DNA of 64,000 bases, taken from NCBI RefSeq assembly GCF_056746865.1, contig NZ_CM163382.1; one strand, 5' to 3'. Under the pieces are notes generated by a model, which did no database searches, was not told the origin of the DNA, and saw nothing but the letters and a program-made list of their open reading frames with translations. The position numbers were made by a program, and so were the translations under genes. Below, in pieces: positions 610 through 54,253 of the stretch. Numbering within the stretch: position 1 is the first letter of the stretch; each line of letters starts with the position of its first letter.

Positions 610-1188
610 ATGGCCATAAAAGGTCTTGAGCAGGCCGTTGAAAACCTCAGCCGTATCAGCAAAACGGCGGTGCCTGGTGCCGCCGCAATGGCCATTAACC
701 GCGTTGCTTCATCCGCGATATCGCAGTCGGCGTCACAGGTTGCCCGTGAGACAATGGTACGCCGGAAACTGGTAAAGGAAAGGGCCAGGCTGAAAAGGGC
801 CACGGTCAAAAATCCGCAGGCCAGAATCAGGGTTAACCGGGGGGATTTGCCCGTAATAAAGCTGGGTAACGCGCGGATTGTCCTGTCCCGACGCAGGCGT
901 CGTAAAAAGGGGCAGCGTTCAGCCCTGAAAGGTGGCGGCAGCGTGCTTGTGGTGGGAAACCGTCGTATTCCCGGCGCGTTTATTCAGCAACTGAAAAATG
1001 GCCGGTGGCATGTCATGCAGCGTGTGGCCGGGAAAAACCGTTACCCCATTGATGTGGTGAAAATCCCGATGGCGGTGCCGCTTACCACGGCGTTTAAACA
1101 GAATATTGAACGGATACGGCGTGAACGTCTTCCGAAAGAGCTGGGCTATGCGCTGCAGCATCAACTGAGAATGGTAATAAAGCGATGA
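610..1188 (+). CDS. Tail completion protein Z (192 aa)
   Basis: 192-aa ORF, lambda Z-like sequence and length, gene order FII-Z-U. Confidence 0.85.
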   Translation: MAIKGLEQAVENLSRISKTAVPGAAAMAINRVASSAISQSASQVARETMVRRKLVKERARLKRATVKNPQARIRVNRGDLPVIKLGNARIVLSRRRRRKKGQRSALKGGGSVLVVGNRRIPGAFIQQLKNGRWHVMQRVAGKNRYPIDVVKIPMAVPLTTAFKQNIERIRRERLPKELGYALQHQLRMVIKR

Positions 1189-1580
1189 AACATACTGAAC
1201 TCCGTGCAGCCGTACTGGATGCACTGGAGAAGCATGACACCGGGGCGACGCTTTTTGATGGTCGCCCCGCTGTTTTTGATGAGGCGGATTTTCCGGCAAT
1301 TGCCGTTTATCTCATCGGCGCTGAATACACAGGCGAAGAGCTGGACAGTGATACCTGGCAGGCGGAGCTGCATATTGAAGTTTTCCTGCCTGCTCAGGTG
1401 CCGGATTCAGAGCTGGATTCGTGGATGGAGTCCCGGATTTATCCGGTGATGAGCGATGTCCCGGCACTGTCAGATTTGATCACCAGTATGGTGGCCAGTG
1501 GCTATGACTACCGGCGCGACGATGATGCGGGCCTGTGGAGTTCAGCCGATCTGACTTATGTCATTACCTATGAAATGTGA
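1185..1580 (+). CDS. Tail tube terminator protein U (131 aa)
   Basis: 131-aa ORF overlapping the Z stop (ATGA coupling); lambda U length and position. Confidence 0.85.
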
Positions 1581-1587
1581 GGACGAT

Positions 1588-2328
1588 ATGCCTGTACCAA
1601 ATCCAGTAATGCCGGTGAAAGGGGCCGGGACCACACTGTGGGTTTATAAGGGGAGCGGTGACCCTTATGCGAACCCGCTTTCAGACGTTGACTGGTCGCG
1701 TCTGGCAAAAGTTAAAGACCTGACGCCCGGCGAACTGACCGCTGAGTCCTATGACGACAGCTATCTCGATGATGAAGATGCAGACTGGACTGCGACCGGG
1801 CAGGGGCAGAAATCTGCCGGAGATACCAGCTTCACGCTGGCTTGGATGCCCGGAGAGCAGGGGCAGCAGGCGCTGCTGGCGTGGTTTAATGAAGGTGATA
1901 CCCGTGCCTATAAAATCCGCTTCCCGAACGGCACGGTCGATGTGTTCCGTGGCTGGGTCAGCAGTATCGGTAAGGCGGTGACGGCGAAGGAAGTGATTAC
2001 CCGCACGGTGAAGGTCACCAATGTGGGACGTCCGTCGATGGCAGAAGATCGCAGCACGGTGACGGCGGCCACCGGCATGACGGTAACGCCAGCCAGTGCT
2101 TCCGTAGTGAAAGGGCAGAGCACCACGCTGACCGTGGCCTTCCAGCCGGAAGGGGCAACCGACAAGAGCTTCCGTGCGGTGTCTTCGGATAAAACAAAAG
2201 CCACCGTGTCGGTCAGTGGTATGACCATCACCGTGAACGGCGTTGCTGCAGGCAAGGTCAACATTCCGGTTGTATCTGGTAATGGTGAGTTTGCTGCGGT
2301 TGCAGAAATCACCGTCACCGCCAGTTAA
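1588..2328 (+). CDS. Major tail tube protein V (246 aa) with C-terminal Ig-like domain
   Basis: ORF track gives 1558..2328; I place the start at the internal ATG at 1588 ([22 protein letters not shown]...), which reproduces the lambda V N-terminus and 246-aa length. Confidence 0.85.
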
Positions 2329-2343
2329 TCCGGAGAGTCAGCG

Positions 2344-2766
2344 ATGTTCCTGAAAACAGAATCATTTGAACATAACGGTGTGACCGTCACGCTTTCTGAA
2401 CTGTCAGCCCTGCAGCGTATTGAGCATCTCGCCCTGATGAAACGGCAGGCAGAACAGGCGGAGTCAGACAGCAACCGGAAGTTTACTGTGGAAGACGCCA
2501 TCAGAACCGGCGCGTTTCTGGTGGCGATGTCCCTGTGGCATAACCATCCGCAGAAGACAAAGCTGCCTTCCATGAATGAAGCCGTTAAACAGATTGAGCA
2601 GGAAGTGCTTACCACCTGGCCCACAGAGGCAATTTCTCATGCTGAAAACGTGGTGTACCGGCTGTCCGGTATGTCTGAGTTTGTGGTGAATGATGCTCCT
2701 GAACAGGCAGAGGACGCCGGGCCTGCAGAGCCTGTTTCTGCGGGAAAGTGTTCGACGGTGAGCTGA
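2344..2766 (+). CDS. Tail assembly chaperone G (140 aa)
   Basis: 140-aa ORF ending ...PVSAGKCSTVS; lambda G length and position; contains the slip site near its 3' end. Confidence 0.85.
   Translation: MFLKTESFEHNGVTVTLSELSALQRIEHLALMKRQAEQAESDSNRKFTVEDAIRTGAFLVAMSLWHNHPQKTKLPSMNEAVKQIEQEVLTTWPTEAISHAENVVYRLSGMSEFVVNDAPEQAEDAGPAEPVSAGKCSTVS
2742..2748 (+). promoter_or_regulatory. Programmed -1 ribosomal frameshift slippery heptamer G GGA AAG (G to G-T)
   Basis: Heptamer GGGAAAG lies in the G zero frame as G-GGA-AAG at 2742-2748, exactly where the T frame opens; same slip sequence as lambda G-T. Confidence 0.65.
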
Positions 2767-3182
2767 GTTTTGCCCTGAAACTGGCGCGTGAGATGGGGCG
2801 ACCCGACTGGCGCGCCATGCTTGCCGGGATGTCATCCACGGAGTATGCCGACTGGCACCGCTTTTACAGTACCCATTATTTTCATGATGTTCTGCTGGAT
2901 ATGCACTTTTCCGGGCTGACGTACACCGTGCTCAGCCTGTTTTTCAGCGATCCGGAGATGCATCCGCTGGATTTCAGTCTGCTGAACCGGCGCGAGGCTG
3001 ACGAAGAGCCTGAAGATGATGTGCTGATGCAGAAAGCGGCAGGGCTTGCCGGAGGCGTTCGTTTTGGCCTGGACGGGAATGAAGTTATCCCCGCTTCCCC
3101 GGATGTGGCGGACATGACGGAGGATGACGTAATGCTGATGACAGTATCAGAAGGGATCGCAGGAGGAGTCCGGTATGGCTGA
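2748..3182 (+). CDS. Tail assembly protein T, expressed as a G-T fusion by -1 frameshift
   Basis: 144-aa -1 frame ORF overlapping the 3' end of G with no independent ATG start; matches the lambda G/GT arrangement. Confidence 0.8.
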   Translation: MFDGELSFALKLAREMGRPDWRAMLAGMSSTEYADWHRFYSTHYFHDVLLDMHFSGLTYTVLSLFFSDPEMHPLDFSLLNRREADEEPEDDVLMQKAAGLAGGVRFGLDGNEVIPASPDVADMTEDDVMLMTVSEGIAGGVRYG

Positions 3183-5730
3183 ACCGGTAGGCGATCTGGT
3201 CGTTGATTTAAGTCTGGATGCGGCCAGATTTGACGAGCAGATGGCCAGAGTCAGGCGTCATTTTTCCGGTACGGAAAGTGATGCGAAAAAAACAGCGGCA
3301 GTCGTTGAACAGTCGATGAACCGGCAGGCGCTGGCTGCACAGAAAGCGGGAATTTCCGTCGGGCAGTATAAAGCCGCCATGCGTATGCTGCCTGCGCAGT
3401 TCACTGACGTGGCCACGCAGCTTGCAGGCGGGCAAAGTCCGTGGCTGATCCTGCTGCAACAGGGGGGGCAGGTGAAGGACTCCTTCGGCGGGATGATCCC
3501 CATGTTCCGGGGGCTTGCCGGTGCGATCACCCTGCCGATGGTGGGGGCCACCTCGCTGGCGGTGGCGACCGGAGCGCTGGCGTATGCCTGGTATCAGGGC
3601 AACTCAACCCTGTCCGATTTCAACAAAACGCTGGTCCTTTCCGGCAATCAGGCGGGACTGACGGCAGATCGTATGCTGGTCCTGTCCAGAGCCGGGCAGG
3701 CGGCAGGGCTGACGTTTAACCAGACCAGCGAGTCACTCAGCGCACTGGTTAAGGCGGGGGTAAGCGGTGAGGCTCAGATTGCGTCCATCAGCCAGAGTGT
3801 GGCGCGTTTCTCCTCTGCATCCGGCGTGGAGGTGGACAAGGTCGCTGAAGCCTTCGGGAAGCTGACCACAGACCCGACGTCGGGGCTGACGGCGATGGCA
3901 CGCCAGTTCCATAACGTGACGGCGGAGCAGATTGCGTATGTTGCTCAGTTGCAGCGTTCCGGCGATGAAGCCGGGGCATTGCAGGCGGCGAACGAGGCCG
4001 CAACGAAAGGGTTTGATGACCAGACCCGACGCCTGAAAGAGAACATGGGCACGCTGGAAACCTGGGCAGACAGGACAGCACGGGCATTCAAATCCATGTG
4101 GGATGCGGTGCTGGATATTGGTCGTCCTGATACCGCTCAGGAGATGCTGATTAAGGCAGAGGCTGCGTTTAAGAAAGCAGACGACATCTGGAATCTGCGC
4201 AAGGATGATTATTTTGTTAACGATGAAGCGCGGGCACGTTACTGGGATGATCGTGAAAAGGCCCGTCTTGCGCTTGAAGCCGCCCGAAAGAAGGCTGAGC
4301 AGCAGAGTCAACAGGACAAAAATGCGCAGCAGCAGAGCGATACCGAAGCGTCACGGCTGAAATATACCGAAGAGGCGCAGAAGGCTTACGAACGGCTGCA
4401 GACGCCGCTGGAGAAATATACCGCCCGTCAGGAAGAACTGAACAAGGCACTGAAGGACGGGAAAATTCTGCAGGCAGATTACAACACGCTGATGGCGGCG
4501 GCGAAAAAGGACTATGAAGCGACGCTGAAAAAGCCGAAAGGCGTGAAGGTGTCTGCGGGCGATCGTCAGGAAGACAGTGCTCATGCTGCCCTGCTGACGC
4601 TTCAGGCAGAACTCCGGACGCTGGAGAAGCATGCCGGAGCGAATGAGAAAATCAGCCAGCAGCGCCGGGATTTGTGGAAGGCAGAAAGTCAGTTCGCGGT
4701 ACTGGAGGAGGCGGCACAACGTCGCCAGCTGTCCGCACAGGAGAAATCCCTGCTGGCGCATAAAGACGAGACGCTGGAGTACAAACGCCAGCTGGCTGTA
4801 CTTGGCGACAAGGTCACCTATCAGGAGCACCTGAACGCGCTGGCGCAGCAGGCGGATAAGTTCGCACAGCAACAACGGGCAAAACGGGCCGCCATTGATG
4901 CAAAAAAACGGGGGCTGACTGACCGGCAGGCAGCGCGGGAAGCCACGGAACAGCGCCTGAAGGAACAGTATGGCGATAATCCGCTGGCGCTGAATAACGT
5001 CATGTCAGAGCAGAAAAAGACCTGGGCGGCTGAAGACCAGCTTCGCGGGAGCTGGATGGCAGGCCTGAAGTCCGGCTGGAGTGAGTGGGAAGAGAGCGCC
5101 ACGGACAGTATGTCGCAGGTTAAAAGTGCTGCCACGCAGACCTTTGATGGTATTGCACAGAATATGGCGGCGATGCTGACCGGCAGTGAGCAGAACTGGC
5201 GCAGCTTCACCCGTTCCGTGCTGTCCATGATGACAGAAATTCTGCTTAAGCAGGCAATGGTGGGGATTGTCGGGAGTATCGGCAGCGCCATTGGCGGGGC
5301 TGTTGGTGGCGGCGCGTCCGCGTCAGGCGGTACAGCCATTCAGGCCGCTGCGGCGAAATTCCATTTTGCAACCGGAGGATTTACGGGAACCGGCGGCAAA
5401 TATGAGCCAGCGGGGATTGTTCACCGCGGTGAATTTGTCTTCACGAAGGAGGCAACCAGCCGGATTGGCGTGGGGAATCTCTACCGGCTGATGCGCGGCT
5501 ATGCCACCGGTGGTTATGTCGGTACACCGGGCAGCATGGCGGACAGCCGGTCGCAGGCGTCCGGGAAGTTTGAGCAGAATAACCATGTGGTGATTAACAA
5601 CGACGGCACGAACGGTCAGATAGGGCCACAGGCGCTGAAGGCGGTTTATGACGTAGCCCGTAAGGCGGCAATGGATGTTGTGACCGGGCAGATGCGTGAT
5701 GGTGGTCTGTTCTCCGGAGGTGGACGATGA
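3175..5730 (+). CDS. Tail tape measure protein H (851 aa)
   Basis: 851-aa ORF, coiled-coil-rich, with a C-terminal glycine-rich segment; lambda H-like size and position after G-T. Confidence 0.9.
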   Translation: MAEPVGDLVVDLSLDAARFDEQMARVRRHFSGTESDAKKTAAVVEQSMNRQALAAQKAGISVGQYKAAMRMLPAQFTDVATQLAGGQSPWLILLQQGGQVKDSFGGMIPMFRGLAGAITLPMVGATSLAVATGALAYAWYQGNSTLSDFNKTLVLSGNQAGLTADRMLVLSRAGQAAGLTFNQTSESLSALVKAGVSGEAQIASISQSVARFSSASGVEVDKVAEAFGKLTTDPTSGLTAMARQFHNVTAEQIAYVAQLQRSGDEAGALQAANEAATKGFDDQTRRLKENMGTLETWADRTARAFKSMWDAVLDIGRPDTAQEMLIKAEAAFKKADDIWNLRKDDYFVNDEARARYWDDREKARLALEAARKKAEQQSQQDKNAQQQSDTEASRLKYTEEAQKAYERLQTPLEKYTARQEELNKALKDGKILQADYNTLMAAAKKDYEATLKKPKGVKVSAGDRQEDSAHAALLTLQAELRTLEKHAGANEKISQQRRDLWKAESQFAVLEEAAQRRQLSAQEKSLLAHKDETLEYKRQLAVLGDKVTYQEHLNALAQQADKFAQQQRAKRAAIDAKKRGLTDRQAAREATEQRLKEQYGDNPLALNNVMSEQKKTWAAEDQLRGSWMAGLKSGWSEWEESATDSMSQVKSAATQTFDGIAQNMAAMLTGSEQNWRSFTRSVLSMMTEILLKQAMVGIVGSIGSAIGGAVGGGASASGGTAIQAAAAKFHFATGGFTGTGGKYEPAGIVHRGEFVFTKEATSRIGVGNLYRLMRGYATGGYVGTPGSMADSRSQASGKFEQNNHVVINNDGTNGQIGPQALKAVYDVARKAAMDVVTGQMRDGGLFSGGGR

Positions 5731-50556: not shown

Positions 50557-51684
<1,128 letters not shown>

Positions 51685-52019
51685 TTATGTTGGCGTTTTC
51701 TATTCAGTATAGAAGTCGGAGCGGCTGGGCGAGATGCGGAAGTTCTGGAATGCTTCTTTTTTTTGGTGATGGTGAACTGATTGTGACTGAAGAAGTTTGG
51801 CTACTTTTGCAATGTGACAAGTTATGGCAGAGCTGGCTGGTGGCGAAGAATTTTGACGATTGAGGCATGCAGAAAAATACGGGTTCAGCTTCAGTTGATC
51901 AAATGAGGAGTGAGAAGTCCGAAACAGGACTCACTGTATAAATAAACAGCTATTTTGCTGAAGAAGGGTAAGATAACGGCGGGTGCCTGAAGCTTTCCGG
52001 TTTCAGGTTTACTCTGAGG

Positions 52020-52090
52020 TCTGGAAAGATGAAGCCCCAGGACGATATTTCTATCAACCCTGGGGCTGCCACTCCAAACCCAAACAATTT
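52020..52090 (-). ncRNA. sokE: Predicted Sok-type antisense RNA (copy 1), approximate coordinates
   Basis: By analogy with hok/sok loci the antisense RNA overlaps the mok initiation region; a plausible promoter (TTGCCT-N17-TACCAT) is present on the minus strand near 52100. Boundaries not determined. Confidence 0.3.
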
Positions 52091-52217
52091 GGATGGTAGT
52101 CCCTTCTTCGCATGGAGGCAATATAAACATGCTGACGAAATATGCCCTTGTGGCTGTCATAGTGCTGTGTTTAACGGTGCTGGGATTTACGCTTCTGGTC
52201 GGAGACTCGCTGTGTGA
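52029..52217 (+). CDS. mokE: mok-type reading frame overlapping hok (copy 1)
   Basis: 62-aa ORF starting upstream of hok and overlapping it out of frame, the classic mok/hok arrangement. Confidence 0.5.
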
Positions 52218-52281
52218 GTTTACGGTGAAGGAACGTAATATTGAGTTTAAGGCTGTTCTCGCTTACGAACCGAAGAAGTAG
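52129..52281 (+). CDS. hokE: Hok-family host-killing toxin (50 aa), copy 1
   Basis: [50 protein letters not shown]: single TM helix, typical Hok sequence; IS186 lies 22 bp downstream of the stop. Confidence 0.8.
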
Positions 52282-52303
52282 CCGTTGTGCGGGGAGTAAT
52301 CCC

Positions 52304-53641
52304 ATAAGCGCTAACTTAAGGGTTGTGGTATTACGCCTGATATGATTTAACGTGCCGATGAATTACTCTCACGATAACTGGTCAGCAATTCTGGCCCATA
52401 TTGGTAAGCCCGAAGAACTGGATACTTCGGCACGTAATGCCGGGGCTCTAACCCGCCGCCGCGAAATTCGTGATGCTGCAACTCTGCTACGTCTGGGGCT
52501 GGCTTACGGCCCCGGGGGGATGTCATTACGTGAAGTCACTGCATGGGCTCAGCTCCATGACGTTGCAACATTATCTGACGTGGCTCTCCTGAAGCGGCTG
52601 CGGAATGCCGCCGACTGGTTTGGCATACTTGCCGCACAAACACTTGCTGTACGCGCCGCAGTTACGGGTTGTACAAGCGGAAAGAGATTGCGTCTTGTCG
52701 ATGGAACAGCAATCAGTGCGCCCGGGGGCGGCAGCGCTGAATGGCGACTACATATGGGATATGATCCTCATACCTGTCAGTTCACTGATTTTGAGCTAAC
52801 CGACAGCAGAGACGCTGAACGGCTGGACCGATTTGCGCAAACGGCAGACGAGATACGCATTGCTGACCGGGGATTCGGTTCGCGTCCCGAATGTATCCGC
52901 TCACTTGCTTTTGGAGAAGCTGATTATATCGTCCGGGTTCACTGGCGAGGATTGCGCTGGTTAACTGCAGAAGGAATGCGCTTTGACATGATGGGTTTTC
53001 TGCGCGGGCTGGATTGCGGTAAGAACGGTGAAACCACTGTAATGATAGGCAATTCAGGTAATAAAAAAGCCGGAGCTCCTTTTCCGGCACGTCTCATTGC
53101 CGTATCACTTCCTCCCGAAAAAGCATTAATCAGTAAAACCCGACTGCTCAGCGAGAATCGTCGAAAAGGACGAGTAGTTCAGGCGGAAACGCTGGAAGCA
53201 GCGGGCCATGTGCTATTGCTAACATCATTACCGGAAGATGAATATTCAGCAGAGCAAGTGGCTGATTGTTACCGTCTGCGATGGCAAATTGAACTGGCTT
53301 TTAAGCGGCTCAAAAGTTTGCTGCACCTGGATGCTTTGCGTGCAAAGGAACCTGAACTCGCGAAAGCGTGGATATTTGCTAATCTACTCGCCGCATTTTT
53401 AATTGACGACATAATCCAGCCATCGCTGGATTTCCCCCCCAGAAGTGCCGGATCCGAAAAGAAGAACTAACTCGTTGTGGAGAATAACAAAAATGGTCAT
53501 CTGGAGCTTACAGGTGGCCATTCGTGGGACAGTATCCCTGACAGCCTACAAAACGCAATTGAAGAACGCGAGGCATCGTCTTAACGAGGCACCGAGGCGT
53601 CGCATTCTTCAGATGGTTCAACCCTTAAGTTAGCGCTTATG
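52304..53641 (+). mobile_element. IS186 (1338 bp) with 11-bp target duplication GGAGTAATCCC
   Basis: Terminal inverted repeats cataagcgctaacttaagggttg ... caacccttaagttagcgcttatg; identical 11-mer at 52293-52303 and 53642-53652. Confidence 0.9.
52352..53470 (+). CDS. insL: IS186 transposase (IS4 family, 372 aa)
   Basis: MPMNYSHDNWSAILAHIGKPEELDTSARNAGALTRRREIRD...; matches the IS186 transposase. Confidence 0.9.
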   Translation: MPMNYSHDNWSAILAHIGKPEELDTSARNAGALTRRREIRDAATLLRLGLAYGPGGMSLREVTAWAQLHDVATLSDVALLKRLRNAADWFGILAAQTLAVRAAVTGCTSGKRLRLVDGTAISAPGGGSAEWRLHMGYDPHTCQFTDFELTDSRDAERLDRFAQTADEIRIADRGFGSRPECIRSLAFGEADYIVRVHWRGLRWLTAEGMRFDMMGFLRGLDCGKNGETTVMIGNSGNKKAGAPFPARLIAVSLPPEKALISKTRLLSENRRKGRVVQAETLEAAGHVLLLTSLPEDEYSAEQVADCYRLRWQIELAFKRLKSLLHLDALRAKEPELAKAWIFANLLAAFLIDDIIQPSLDFPPRSAGSEKKN

Positions 53642-53979
53642 GGAGTAATCCCCGCATATCCGGTTGTCAGGTCAGGGTGGTAAGGCACCTGCTTTACACT
53701 TTCGCCCGCGGTCAGCAATGGCTGCGGGCGATTTCGTTTTACGAACAATAACGAGCGTTGCCAACAGAAGTCCGAAACAGGACTCGCTGTATAAATAAAC
53801 AGCTATTTTGATAAGGAAGGGTAAGATAACGGCGGGTGCCTGAAGCTTTCCGGTTTCAGGTTTACTCTGAGGTCTGGAAAGATGAAGCCCCAGGAGATAT
53901 TTCTATCAACCCTGGGGCTGCCACTCCAAACCAGACAATTTGGATGGTAGTCCCTTCTTCGCATGGAGGCAATATAAAC

Positions 53980-54132
53980 ATGCTGACGAAATATGCCCTT
54001 GTGGCAGTCATAGTGCTGTGTTTAACGGTGCTGGGATTTACGCTTCTGGTCGGAGACTCGCTGTGTGAGTTTACGGTGAAGGAACGTAATATTGAGTTTA
54101 AGGCTGTTCTCGCTTACGAACCGAAGAAGTAG
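53980..54132 (+). CDS. Hok-family toxin (50 aa), copy 2 (tandem duplicate)
   Basis: Encodes the same 50-aa Hok peptide as copy 1 (one synonymous difference seen); the upstream mok-equivalent frame differs by two 1-nt indels. Confidence 0.65.
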
Positions 54133-54253
54133 CCGTTGTGCGGGGAGTAATCCCCGCATATCCGGTTGTCAGGTCAGGGTGGTAAGGCACCTGCTTTACA
54201 CTTTCGCCCGCGGTCAGTGATGGCTGCGGGCGAATCGTACCAGAAGTTGTCAA

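Follow-up and report, generated by a model that had tools for sequence, protein, structure and literature searches.

A two-unit hokE/sokE array with IS186 in its first unit: a probable standing structural allele of the Escherichia coli chromosome

In plasmid R1, mok reportedly has to be translated as far as the hok Shine-Dalgarno sequence. Premature stops in mok, five of them and all ahead of the hok start, abolished toxicity; toxicity and processed hok mRNA were also lost when single GC pairs in the 3' terminal stem were broken, and endogenous Sok RNAs did not cross-inhibit R1 hok (PMC9841398). The chromosomal members hokA, hokB, and hokC showed no post-segregational killing when tested, the HokE coding sequence is toxic on overexpression, and hok "islets" hold 2 to 6 copies, with ~10% of Hok genes lying in such islets (bioRxiv 10.1101/2025.08.07.668861). 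K-12 hok loci flanked by insertion sequences are held to be inactivated, as this view is cited in two later papers (Pedersen and Gerdes 1999, cited in PMC7232551 and PMC12214031). The mRNA of hokE is also edited: Hok requires A-to-I editing for Cys46, and in K-12 the mRNA of the IS186-interrupted hokE is detectable and about 40% edited (PMC12214031), so transcription is not silenced there by the insertion sequence. A hokE duplication, hok-2.1 and hok-2.2, has been published for the AIEC strain NRG857c (PMC7232551).

The window that we analyzed is a 64,000-nucleotide stretch of DNA (NCBI RefSeq assembly GCF_056746865.1, contig NZ_CM163382.1). The part considered here lies between ybdK and entD and is laid out as follows.

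50557 to 51675, minus strand: ybdK, left flanking gene; 372-aa ORF, annotated as such in K-12 and in strain 98232, whose locus is identical
51913 to 52302, plus strand: hokE/sokE unit 1, 5' part, with promoter region, leader, hok, and left half of the 3' hairpin; aligns with 53766-54153
52303 to 53641, plus strand: IS186 (IS4 family), with transposase ORF 52358-53470 and 23-bp terminal inverted repeats
53642 to 53731, plus strand: 3' remainder of unit 1; aligns with 54144-54233
53732 to 53765, plus strand: inter-unit spacer, 34 bp, absent from single-copy loci
53766 to 54233, plus strand: hokE/sokE unit 2, uninterrupted, defined by local alignment with unit 1 and by a match to Rfam RF01794
54254 to 54874, minus strand: entD, right flanking gene, annotated in K-12 and in an identical locus (L002)

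Given that ybdK forms the left flank, this is the chromosomal hokE site, and the ybdK-entD synteny together with near-identity to K-12 hokE (MG1655 alignment) identifies an orthologue of hokE and not of another hok paralogue. RefSeq annotation in identical genomes names both copies hokE. The region is the chromosomal E. coli hokE/sokE type I toxin-antitoxin locus, which is already known. We consider it likely that what the window holds is a standing structural allele of that locus, a two-unit head-to-tail array to which IS186 was secondarily added in unit 1.

Local alignment pairs 51913-52302 plus 53642-53731 with 53766-54233. With the 11 columns of the IS186 target duplication set aside, the units are identical in 460 of 470 columns (98%), and they differ by 8 substitutions and 2 single-base indels. 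The positions that distinguish them include 51958-51962, 52043, and 52079-52083. The units, each of ~470 bp, follow one another head to tail with a period of about 503 bp and 34 bp of spacer between them, and each matches the Rfam sok family (RF01794) over the full length of the model and above its gathering score of 59 (unit 1, 51981-52137, 82.4 bits; unit 2, 53834-53988, 83.7 bits). A first-pass annotation of this DNA had proposed a tandem duplication of the hok/mok locus. The duplication stands, with homology along the length of the units, although the ends then given to them, 53730 and 54225, fall 1 and 8 nt short. The spacer is 87-100% identical among the arrays of 542 genomes and of other Escherichia species. 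A multiple alignment had left the impression that it was a diverged copy of the entD-side flank; this was dropped when a shuffle test found no significant similarity of the 34-bp spacer to either flank.

The toxin genes and their editing sites are as follows.

52129 to 52281, plus strand: hokE-1 coding sequence, 50 aa (Pfam PF01848 Hok/gef; hokE annotation in identical genomes)
52264 to 52267, plus strand: TACG A-to-I editing motif at Tyr46 of hokE-1
53980 to 54132, plus strand: hokE-2 coding sequence, 50 aa, peptide identical to that of hokE-1 (hokE annotation in identical genomes)
54115 to 54118, plus strand: TACG editing motif of hokE-2

Both copies do encode the same 50-aa Hok, as had been noticed, and their coding sequences differ by one synonymous change (GCT versus GCA). 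The peptide common to both units scores 34 bits against Pfam PF01848 (Hok/gef; cut-off 22) and scores below the cut-off of the NCBIfam Hok subfamily profile. Among 24 units taken from complete genomes and species representatives, the Hok ORF varied at 13 synonymous and 7 conservative nonsynonymous sites (ratio 0.18), and nonsense or frameshift changes were found in none of the 24. This pattern of change shows Hok to be under purifying selection.

The IS186 copy has its inverted repeats at 52303-52325 and 53619-53641, is identical to K-12 IS186B in 1338 of 1339 bases, and retains an intact 370-aa transposase ORF with a DDE_Tnp_1 domain and a match to an IS4-family transposase model. The direct repeat GGAGTAATCC(C) flanks it as a target-site duplication (left, 52293-52302; right, 53642-53651), and its target in unit 1 was GGGGAGTAATCCCC. 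It lies 21-22 nt past the hok stop, where it had been placed before, the boundary being ambiguous by one C. MG1655, in agreement with the first-pass annotation, has one IS186-interrupted hokE, its IS186B sharing both site and orientation with the element of unit 1. The preferred target of IS186 is a GGGG-N6/7-CCCC hairpin motif, and the equivalent hairpins of K-12 hokC and of hokX are also occupied by IS186. At hokE the element has inserted in both orientations, and one genome (L009) has both units hit, with one copy opposite. Since the equivalent hairpin is hit in hokE, hokC, and hokX, it is a target hot spot, and this preference explains the insertion without selection. In one genome a hokE unit has come to lie in the hokX locus through the homology that IS186 provides.

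The RNA elements of the two units are as follows.

51978 to 51988, plus strand: predicted 5' end of unit 1 hok mRNA with the tac element GGCGGGUGCCU, a putative start placed from the start of the Rfam match
52025 to 52085, minus strand: predicted sokE-1 antisense RNA gene, 61 nt, matching in position the sokE annotated in K-12
52289 to 52302, plus strand: left half of the GC-rich 3' stem-loop of unit 1, GCGGGGAGTAATCC, by comparison with the intact unit 2 hairpin
53683 to 53693, plus strand: fbi element of unit 1, which pairs with tac in the fold
53702 to 53731, plus strand: terminal stem-loop of unit 1 and then a T-run, a terminator-like match
53878 to 53936, minus strand: predicted sokE-2 antisense RNA gene, 59 nt, from homology to K-12 sokE and its fold
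54140 to 54157, plus strand: intact GC-rich 3' stem-loop of unit 2, GCGGGGAGTAATCCCCGC, an empty IS186 target GGGG-N6-CCCC

The hok mRNA specified by each unit would be structured, running from tac at the 5' end through the leader ORF, hok, and a GC stem-loop to a 3' fbi element, and each unit would also carry a gene for an antisense Sok RNA. When unit 1 is reconstructed without the insertion sequence, tac (51978-51988) pairs with fbi (53683-53693) in its minimum-free-energy fold. The corresponding fold of 53831-54236 pairs the tac element of unit 2 (nt 1-11, 53831-53841) with fbi at 54185-54195, so that unit 2 has the predicted tac-fbi end pairing and, past its hok stop, a GC stem-loop that corresponds to the 3' stem by which processed hok mRNA of R1 is protected (PMC9841398).

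In unit 1, 1339 bp of IS186 separate hok from its protective stem and fbi. IS186 had been said to sit within the 3' fold-back region, and folding the 3' ends agrees, with fbi and the terminal stem downstream of the insertion point. The element entered the loop of the GGGG-N6-CCCC stem-loop, the hot spot, which would leave the unit 1 transcript without its protective 3' stem and fbi. We infer the expression state of each unit by analogy with R1. For unit 1, the toxin arm would be unstable or nonfunctional, and toxin expression has probably been lost and sok kept; given that the sok gene and its predicted promoter are untouched, unit 1 may still supply antitoxin.

The units also differ in their leaders.

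52029 to 52217, plus strand: mok-like leader ORF of unit 1, 62 aa; it overlaps hok, read in the +1 frame, and its ATG lies 100 nt before the hok ATG
53882 to 53950, plus strand: leader ORF of unit 2, 22 aa, ending in TAG at 53948-53950; its ATG lies 98 nt before the hok ATG
53965 to 53969, plus strand: hok Shine-Dalgarno sequence GGAGG of unit 2, downstream of the leader TAG

The first-pass annotation had described an intact mok frame overlapping hok in copy 1 and, with two 1-nt indels, a mok-equivalent frame ending before hok in copy 2, and we found the same: a 62-aa ORF runs from ATG 52029 in unit 1, the C at 52043 (site A) and the C at 52079 (site B) are both missing in unit 2, and re-inspection gives a 22-aa ORF there, not an intact frame. 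The 62-aa peptide has no Pfam or NCBIfam match. The TAG of unit 2 stands 29 nt before the hok ATG and 15 nt before the hok Shine-Dalgarno sequence; the leader reaches that sequence in unit 1 and not in unit 2, and this trait is polymorphic among hokE loci.

Because BLAST identity bands are blind to a single indel, we rejected them for classifying frames across all 5426 genomes and took leader classes from 72 sampled Escherichia units. In this sample the leader-to-hok distance was 100, 99, or 98 nt in 30, 28, and 14 units, respectively, at any array position. K-12 and E. albertii have their leader ATG in the hok frame, and the 99-nt allele may encode an 83-aa leader-Hok fusion. Each of the three frame states is common, and an "intact overlapping mok" is not the hokE norm. 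The 98-nt allele, that of unit 2, is found in many strains and in another species; single-copy loci carry it, as do the first or the second units of arrays, and 3 of 20 arrays have it in both units, with their Hok ORFs intact. Such 98/98 arrays would be odd if the allele were fully inactivating, and divergence is too low to reveal decay.

Unit 2, then, would have the full mRNA architecture together with a common leader allele that stops before the hok Shine-Dalgarno sequence. Given this stop and the R1 precedent, it is probably weakly translated or untranslated, a structurally complete unit that is probably poorly expressed at the level of translation. In the predicted fold the hok start domain has the CUUCUUCG helix at its base, and ribosomes that end translation at the TAG of unit 2 would get as far as this helix, so some coupling or re-initiation may be possible.

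The array junction (two units plus the 34-bp spacer) is present in 542 of 5426 complete E. coli genomes, arrays of two or three units occurring in ~1/10 of genomes, and the array is also found in E. whittamii and in Escherichia sp. MOD1-EC7003. The hokE-IS186 junction occurs in 1731 genomes of the same set, about one in three, K-12 among them; 3647 (67%) keep one or more hokE 3' regions uninterrupted, and array and IS186 occur together in about 100. Strain 118UI (L003) carries an IS-free array whose 101-bp inter-unit junction is 100% identical to that of the window, as are its leader regions (100/98 alleles) and Hok peptides. Neither the array nor the leader allele of unit 2 is a private lesion; both are old and shared. 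Given that array and IS186 are both common, recorded E. coli variants, the region is ordinary and bears no sign of selection against the toxin.

It is possible, though on balance unlikely, that unit 2 is instead a working module, with unit 1 as a Sok donor and IS186 neutral. Either the unit 2 leader would activate hok, by re-initiation or because a ribosome that terminates there opens the helix of the hok start, or hokE would need no mok-type ORF. All RNA elements of unit 2 are intact, including the predicted tac-fbi pairing and the 3' stem, sok-1 is untouched by the insertion sequence, and 98/98 arrays keep an intact Hok. In the hokE lineage the leader frame is unconserved while Hok is conserved, which suggests that it matters little in which frame the leader is read and possibly where its translation stops. 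However, premature mok stops abolished toxicity in R1, and 15 nt separate the unit 2 stop from the Shine-Dalgarno sequence that follows; the absence of post-segregational killing by hokA, hokB, and hokC in tests (bioRxiv 10.1101/2025.08.07.668861) also argues against a working unit.

A further reading concerns the Sok RNAs. SokE-1 is predicted to fold into a 5' tail of 10-11 nt, a hairpin, and a U-rich 3' end, and the single-stranded 5' tail is exactly where the predicted Sok RNAs of the two units differ (GUCUGGUUUG in sokE-2 versus GUUUGGGUUUG in sokE-1). A sigma-70 consensus scan gave no above-threshold match for hok or sok promoters, which are therefore placed by homology only; the candidate sokE-1 promoter, TTGCCT-17-TACCAT (52121-52093, minus strand), was sub-threshold in the scan. 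Common polymorphism within the unit is densest at 52068-52090, a cluster in which indel site B falls and in which a double change replaces an A-U pair of the stem by G-C.

These observations would fit indels that arose as by-products of diversification of the Sok 5' tail and its hok target loop, tuning Sok specificity among paralogous or tandem units, and the failure of endogenous Sok RNAs to cross-inhibit R1 hok (PMC9841398) points the same way. However, predicted cross-unit Sok/hok duplexes (-111 to -113 kcal/mol) are only ~10% weaker than cognate ones (-123 to -126 kcal/mol), which makes discrimination between the units doubtful. The loop may simply be the least constrained part of the RNA, and indel site A (52043) falls within the Sok terminator hairpin, outside the recognition tail. 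We therefore regard specificity tuning as a rather improbable source of the indels.

The first-pass annotation had interpreted its observations as selection against a chromosomal killer gene, that is, a strain-specific duplication followed by two independent disabling lesions that selection favored. The IS186 in unit 1 and the mok frameshift in unit 2 exist as described, each could lower Hok expression by R1 precedent, and published opinion, as cited in PMC7232551 and PMC12214031, has IS-flanked K-12 hok loci inactivated. However, both the array and the leader allele of unit 2 are old polymorphisms that other Escherichia species share, and the same array persists free of IS186 in 118UI. IS186 recurs at hokC, at hokX, and at both hokE units by target preference, Hok shows purifying selection with no disrupted ORF among the 24 genome-derived units, and an uninterrupted hokE 3' region is kept in 67% of genomes. 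The population data thus largely refute this interpretation, which we now consider very unlikely. An assembly artefact, considered since repeats flanking an insertion sequence can misassemble, was rejected as having a negligible chance of being right, because the identical 2.8-kb arrangement recurs in at least four independent complete genomes, with related versions in ~100 more.

Reading the window as a standing allele serves mainly as a corrective to the K-12-based view of hokE. K-12 is unrepresentative of this locus, given that the array occurs in 1/10 of genomes, IS186 in 1/3, and the leader frame depends on the strain; those who annotate type I toxin-antitoxin loci, or who deduce "inactivation" from K-12 or R1 rules, should weigh such standing variation. 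IS186, lodged in the conserved GC stem-loop of several hok paralogues, constitutes portable homology.

A more speculative view, which we think has little chance of being correct, is that the canonical mok requirement has been relaxed or rewired in the hokE lineage and that the array is a tunable toxin-antitoxin cassette, not a decaying gene. The leader toggles among three frames via single-base indels in two RNA loops, and Hok is under purifying selection. Given this toggling, and variation that falls largely in the target loop of the Sok 5' tail, arrays could mix on, fusion, and off units with partly private Sok specificities. If the leader-frame polymorphism is functional, hokE arrays would offer a natural series on the mok-type coupling needed for Hok translation.

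Among known systems, hok/sok (parB) of plasmid R1 shares with hokE the Hok/Gef peptide, the Rfam sok/hok leader structure, the predicted tac-fbi pairing, the GC stem-loop just past the hok stop, and, by prediction for hokE, an antisense Sok RNA with a single-stranded 5' tail. Unlike R1, hokE is chromosomal and is not known to mediate post-segregational killing; its leader ORF starts ~100 nt before hok in a variable frame, versus ~58 nt in R1, and its Hok requires A-to-I editing for Cys46 (PMC12214031). K-12 hokC/IS186A and hokX/IS186 of CFSAN061770 resemble unit 1 in having IS186 in a GGGG-N6-CCCC hairpin ~20 nt past the hok stop, although they are different hok paralogues at different loci, and IS186 at hokC has the opposite orientation to that in unit 1. 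The literature describes hokX as inactivated by an insertion sequence in E. coli B too. The ldrABC genes of K-12 and the hok "islets" are, like the hokE array, cases of a small toxin/antisense unit duplicated locally, although the ldr toxin family is unrelated to Hok.

K-12 hokE/sokE (b4415, b4835) shares with the window the ybdK-entD site, the IS186 insertion point, orientation, and target duplication, and the position of sokE. It differs by one Hok residue (V8A), by having one unit where the window has two, and by a leader ATG 99 nt from the hok ATG, and hence in frame with hok, versus 100 nt in unit 1 and 98 nt in unit 2. The arrays of NRG857c and 118UI have, like that of the window, two hokE units ~503-504 bp apart in the ybdK-entD interval, and they differ from it in being free of IS186.

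The chromosomal hokE site of E. coli lies between ybdK and entD, and here it holds two units separated by a short spacer.

50557-51675, minus strand: ybdK, left flank of the hokE site
52025-52085, minus strand: Sok gene of unit 1, by homology to annotated K-12 sokE
52029: ATG of the unit 1 leader ORF, 62 aa, overlapping hok; 100 nt from ATG to ATG
52129-52281: hok ORF of unit 1, 50 aa
52303-53641: IS186, with 23-bp terminal inverted repeats and an intact transposase ORF
53683-53693: fbi of unit 1
53702-53731: terminal stem-loop of unit 1
53732-53765: inter-unit spacer, 34 bp
53878-53936, minus strand: Sok gene of unit 2, by homology to annotated K-12 sokE
53882 (ATG) to TAG 53948-53950: leader ORF of unit 2, 22 aa; 98 nt from ATG to ATG
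53980-54132: hok ORF of unit 2, 50 aa
54254-54874, minus strand: entD, right flank of the hokE site

Local alignment, with the IS186 target duplication set aside, pairs 51913-52302 plus 53642-53731 with 53766-54233 at 460 of 470 identical columns. Eight positions are substituted, and two single-nucleotide indels leave unit 2 without the Cs found at 52043 and 52079. The hok ORFs encode an identical 50-aa peptide that matches Pfam Hok/gef, and both units match the full length of Rfam model RF01794 (82-84 bits versus a gathering score of 59). The first-pass annotation had described a tandem duplication encoding the same Hok twice, with IS186 in the first copy and these two indels in the second; we confirmed its factual statements and its structural interpretation, except that its unit ends were off by 1 and 8 nt. 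In identical genomes, RefSeq carries an 89-aa “hypothetical protein” ORF antisense to mok/hok (WP_071592639.1; 51891-52160, minus strand) and its frameshifted pseudogene in unit 2 (53803-54011, minus strand); this ORF is most likely a spurious call across the hok leader.

With the 5’ end of the hok mRNA set at the start of the Rfam match, the minimum-free-energy fold of 53831-54236 pairs nt 1-11 (GGCGGGUGCCU) with 54185-54195 (AGGCACCUGCU), and this predicted end pairing is the tac-fbi pairing expected of hok mRNAs. The predicted fold also includes a GC stem-loop, GCGGGGAGUAAUCCCCGC (54140-54157), eight nt past the hok stop, and the terminal stem-loop; unit 1 gives the same fold once IS186 is removed from it. 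Each Sok RNA is predicted to form a 10-11 nt 5’ tail and a hairpin, and the tail differs between Sok-1 and Sok-2. Among 52 distinct units, the hairpin targeted by this tail (52068-52090 and 53921-53941) was the most polymorphic stretch, including an A-U to G-C double change across the stem.

IS186, which has a single mismatch to K-12 IS186B over 1339 bases and is flanked on both sides by the target duplication GGAGTAATCC(C), lies in the loop of the GC stem-loop after the unit 1 hok stop, so that the right half of the stem, fbi, and the terminal stem-loop are now 1.3 kb from hok-1. Both Sok genes are left intact. In plasmid R1, single G-C pair breaks in the corresponding stem abolish processed hok mRNA and toxicity (PMC9841398), which makes the strongest available case for suspecting impairment of the unit 1 toxin arm. 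Counting against impairment, the identically interrupted hokE of K-12 is still transcribed, with ~40% A-to-I editing at Tyr46 (PMC12214031). The TACG motif reported as this editing site, where editing yields a Cys codon (PMC12214031), is retained in both units (52264-52267 and 54115-54118). Unit 1 would most likely still supply Sok, its toxin arm being impaired.

IS186 prefers GGGG-N6/7-CCCC targets, and the target here, GGGGAGTAATCCCC, fits that pattern. In K-12 hokC, IS186A occupies the equivalent GCGGGGAGTGATCCCCGC hairpin ~20 nt past the stop (L056, K-12 14800-17400, locus coordinates 588-1951), with target duplication GGAGTGATCC and the opposite orientation relative to hok. The equivalent hairpin of hokX in strain CFSAN061770 is also occupied. 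Strain SW070910 (L009, NZ_CM129864.1, locus coordinates 830-4200), a close relative of the window haplotype, has IS186 in each of its two hokE units, one copy opposite to the window’s orientation, with the intervening DNA inverted. In a metagenome array, the interrupted unit has a variant hairpin loop, GGAGCAATCC, and this variant is duplicated on either side of IS186. Because equivalent hairpins of hokC, hokX, and both hokE units have been hit, target preference is sufficient to explain the insertion, and selection against Hok is not needed.

The CFSAN061770 cysH-cas3 (hokX) locus (L057, NZ_CP023142.1, 1176244-1182484; locus coordinates 1570-4960) reads hokX, IS186, a hokE segment (hokE 3’ remainder, 34-bp spacer, hokE unit with 98-nt leader), IS186, and hokX 3’ remainder. 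The ybdK-entD locus of that strain retains a single hokE with IS186. Recombination between IS186 copies seems to have carried the IS186-bounded segment from one hok locus to another. One metagenome contig (L047, locus coordinates 521-1885) carries foreign sequence, GGGGGGGGCCCC..., on the right side of its hokE IS186, indicating deletion or recombination with another IS186 copy.

Across 5426 complete E. coli genomes, the inter-unit junction including the spacer occurred in 542 (87%-100% identity), the hokE-IS186 junction in 1731, and at least one uninterrupted hokE 3’ region in 3647; ~100, O104:H4 strains among them, had IS186 followed by spacer and second unit. Strain 118UI has a junction 100% identical to the window’s and shares its two leader alleles and its Hok peptides, yet, unlike the window, lacks IS186, which suggests that the insertion in this lineage came later than the array. 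The spacer matched neither flank of the locus, so the array did not arise by simple, recent duplication of a single-copy locus. Arrays from several Escherichia species share this conserved spacer, which in the window also provides a T-run after the unit 1 terminal stem-loop (53702-53741); the last unit has none. One strain (L004, NZ_CP019273.1, locus coordinates 1875-3034) carries three units, with leader classes 99/100/99. Some lineages (L008, locus coordinates 3143-4758; L014) have, in place of entD after the array, a pair of SDR-family oxidoreductase genes plus one for an ABC transporter.

The leader frame varies among units (below); hok, by contrast, segregates at 13 synonymous and only 7 nonsynonymous sites, the latter conservative (per-site nonsynonymous/synonymous ratio 0.18), across the 24 units that come from complete genomes or represent species, and none of these has a nonsense or frameshift change. 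Disrupted hok ORFs appeared in 3 of ~50 metagenome-contig units, where they are indistinguishable from insertions or assembly errors. In L036 and L053, hok turns into unrelated sequence after about codon 15 (45-aa product), suggesting insertion or rearrangement inside hok; in L050 unit 1 it is cut to 33 aa, which may be an assembly error.

As first described, the unit 1 mok frame overlaps hok and the unit 2 frame ends at a TAG before it. We place this TAG 29 nt 5’ of the hok ATG and 15 nt 5’ of its Shine-Dalgarno sequence. We scored the leader-to-hok distance in 72 units, taken from complete genomes, from representatives of species, and from metagenome contigs; it was 100 nt in 30, 99 nt in 28, and 98 nt in 14. 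The classes are not tied to array position, appear in single-copy loci as well, and extend to E. albertii, E. whittamii, and two further Escherichia species. Arrays combine them as 100/98, 100/99, 98/99, 98/100, 99/99, and 98/98, among others. Given this recurrence across strains, positions, and species, the unit 2 allele is old and shared rather than a private lesion. The data do not support the proposal that two independent lesions disabled the units through selection against a killer gene.

The hokE locus, its two-unit form, and the IS186 insertion were all known before this analysis and have been annotated; a hokE duplication is published for AIEC strain NRG857c (PMC7232551), and a recent survey reports islets of 2-6 copies that hold ~10% of hok genes (bioRxiv 10.1101/2025.08.07.668861). 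Only the three-state leader-frame polymorphism and the variable Sok-target loop are under-described, and we consider them unlikely to be functionally meaningful. In R1, mok translation must extend to the hok Shine-Dalgarno sequence (PMC9841398), and extrapolating this rule predicts poor Hok translation from unit 2, which most likely has a complete architecture but a leader allele that would be poorly coupled to hok. An intact overlapping mok is not the hokE reference state. K-12 hokE has a leader-to-hok distance of 99 nt, in frame, giving an 83-aa open frame, compared with 100 and 98 nt in the window.
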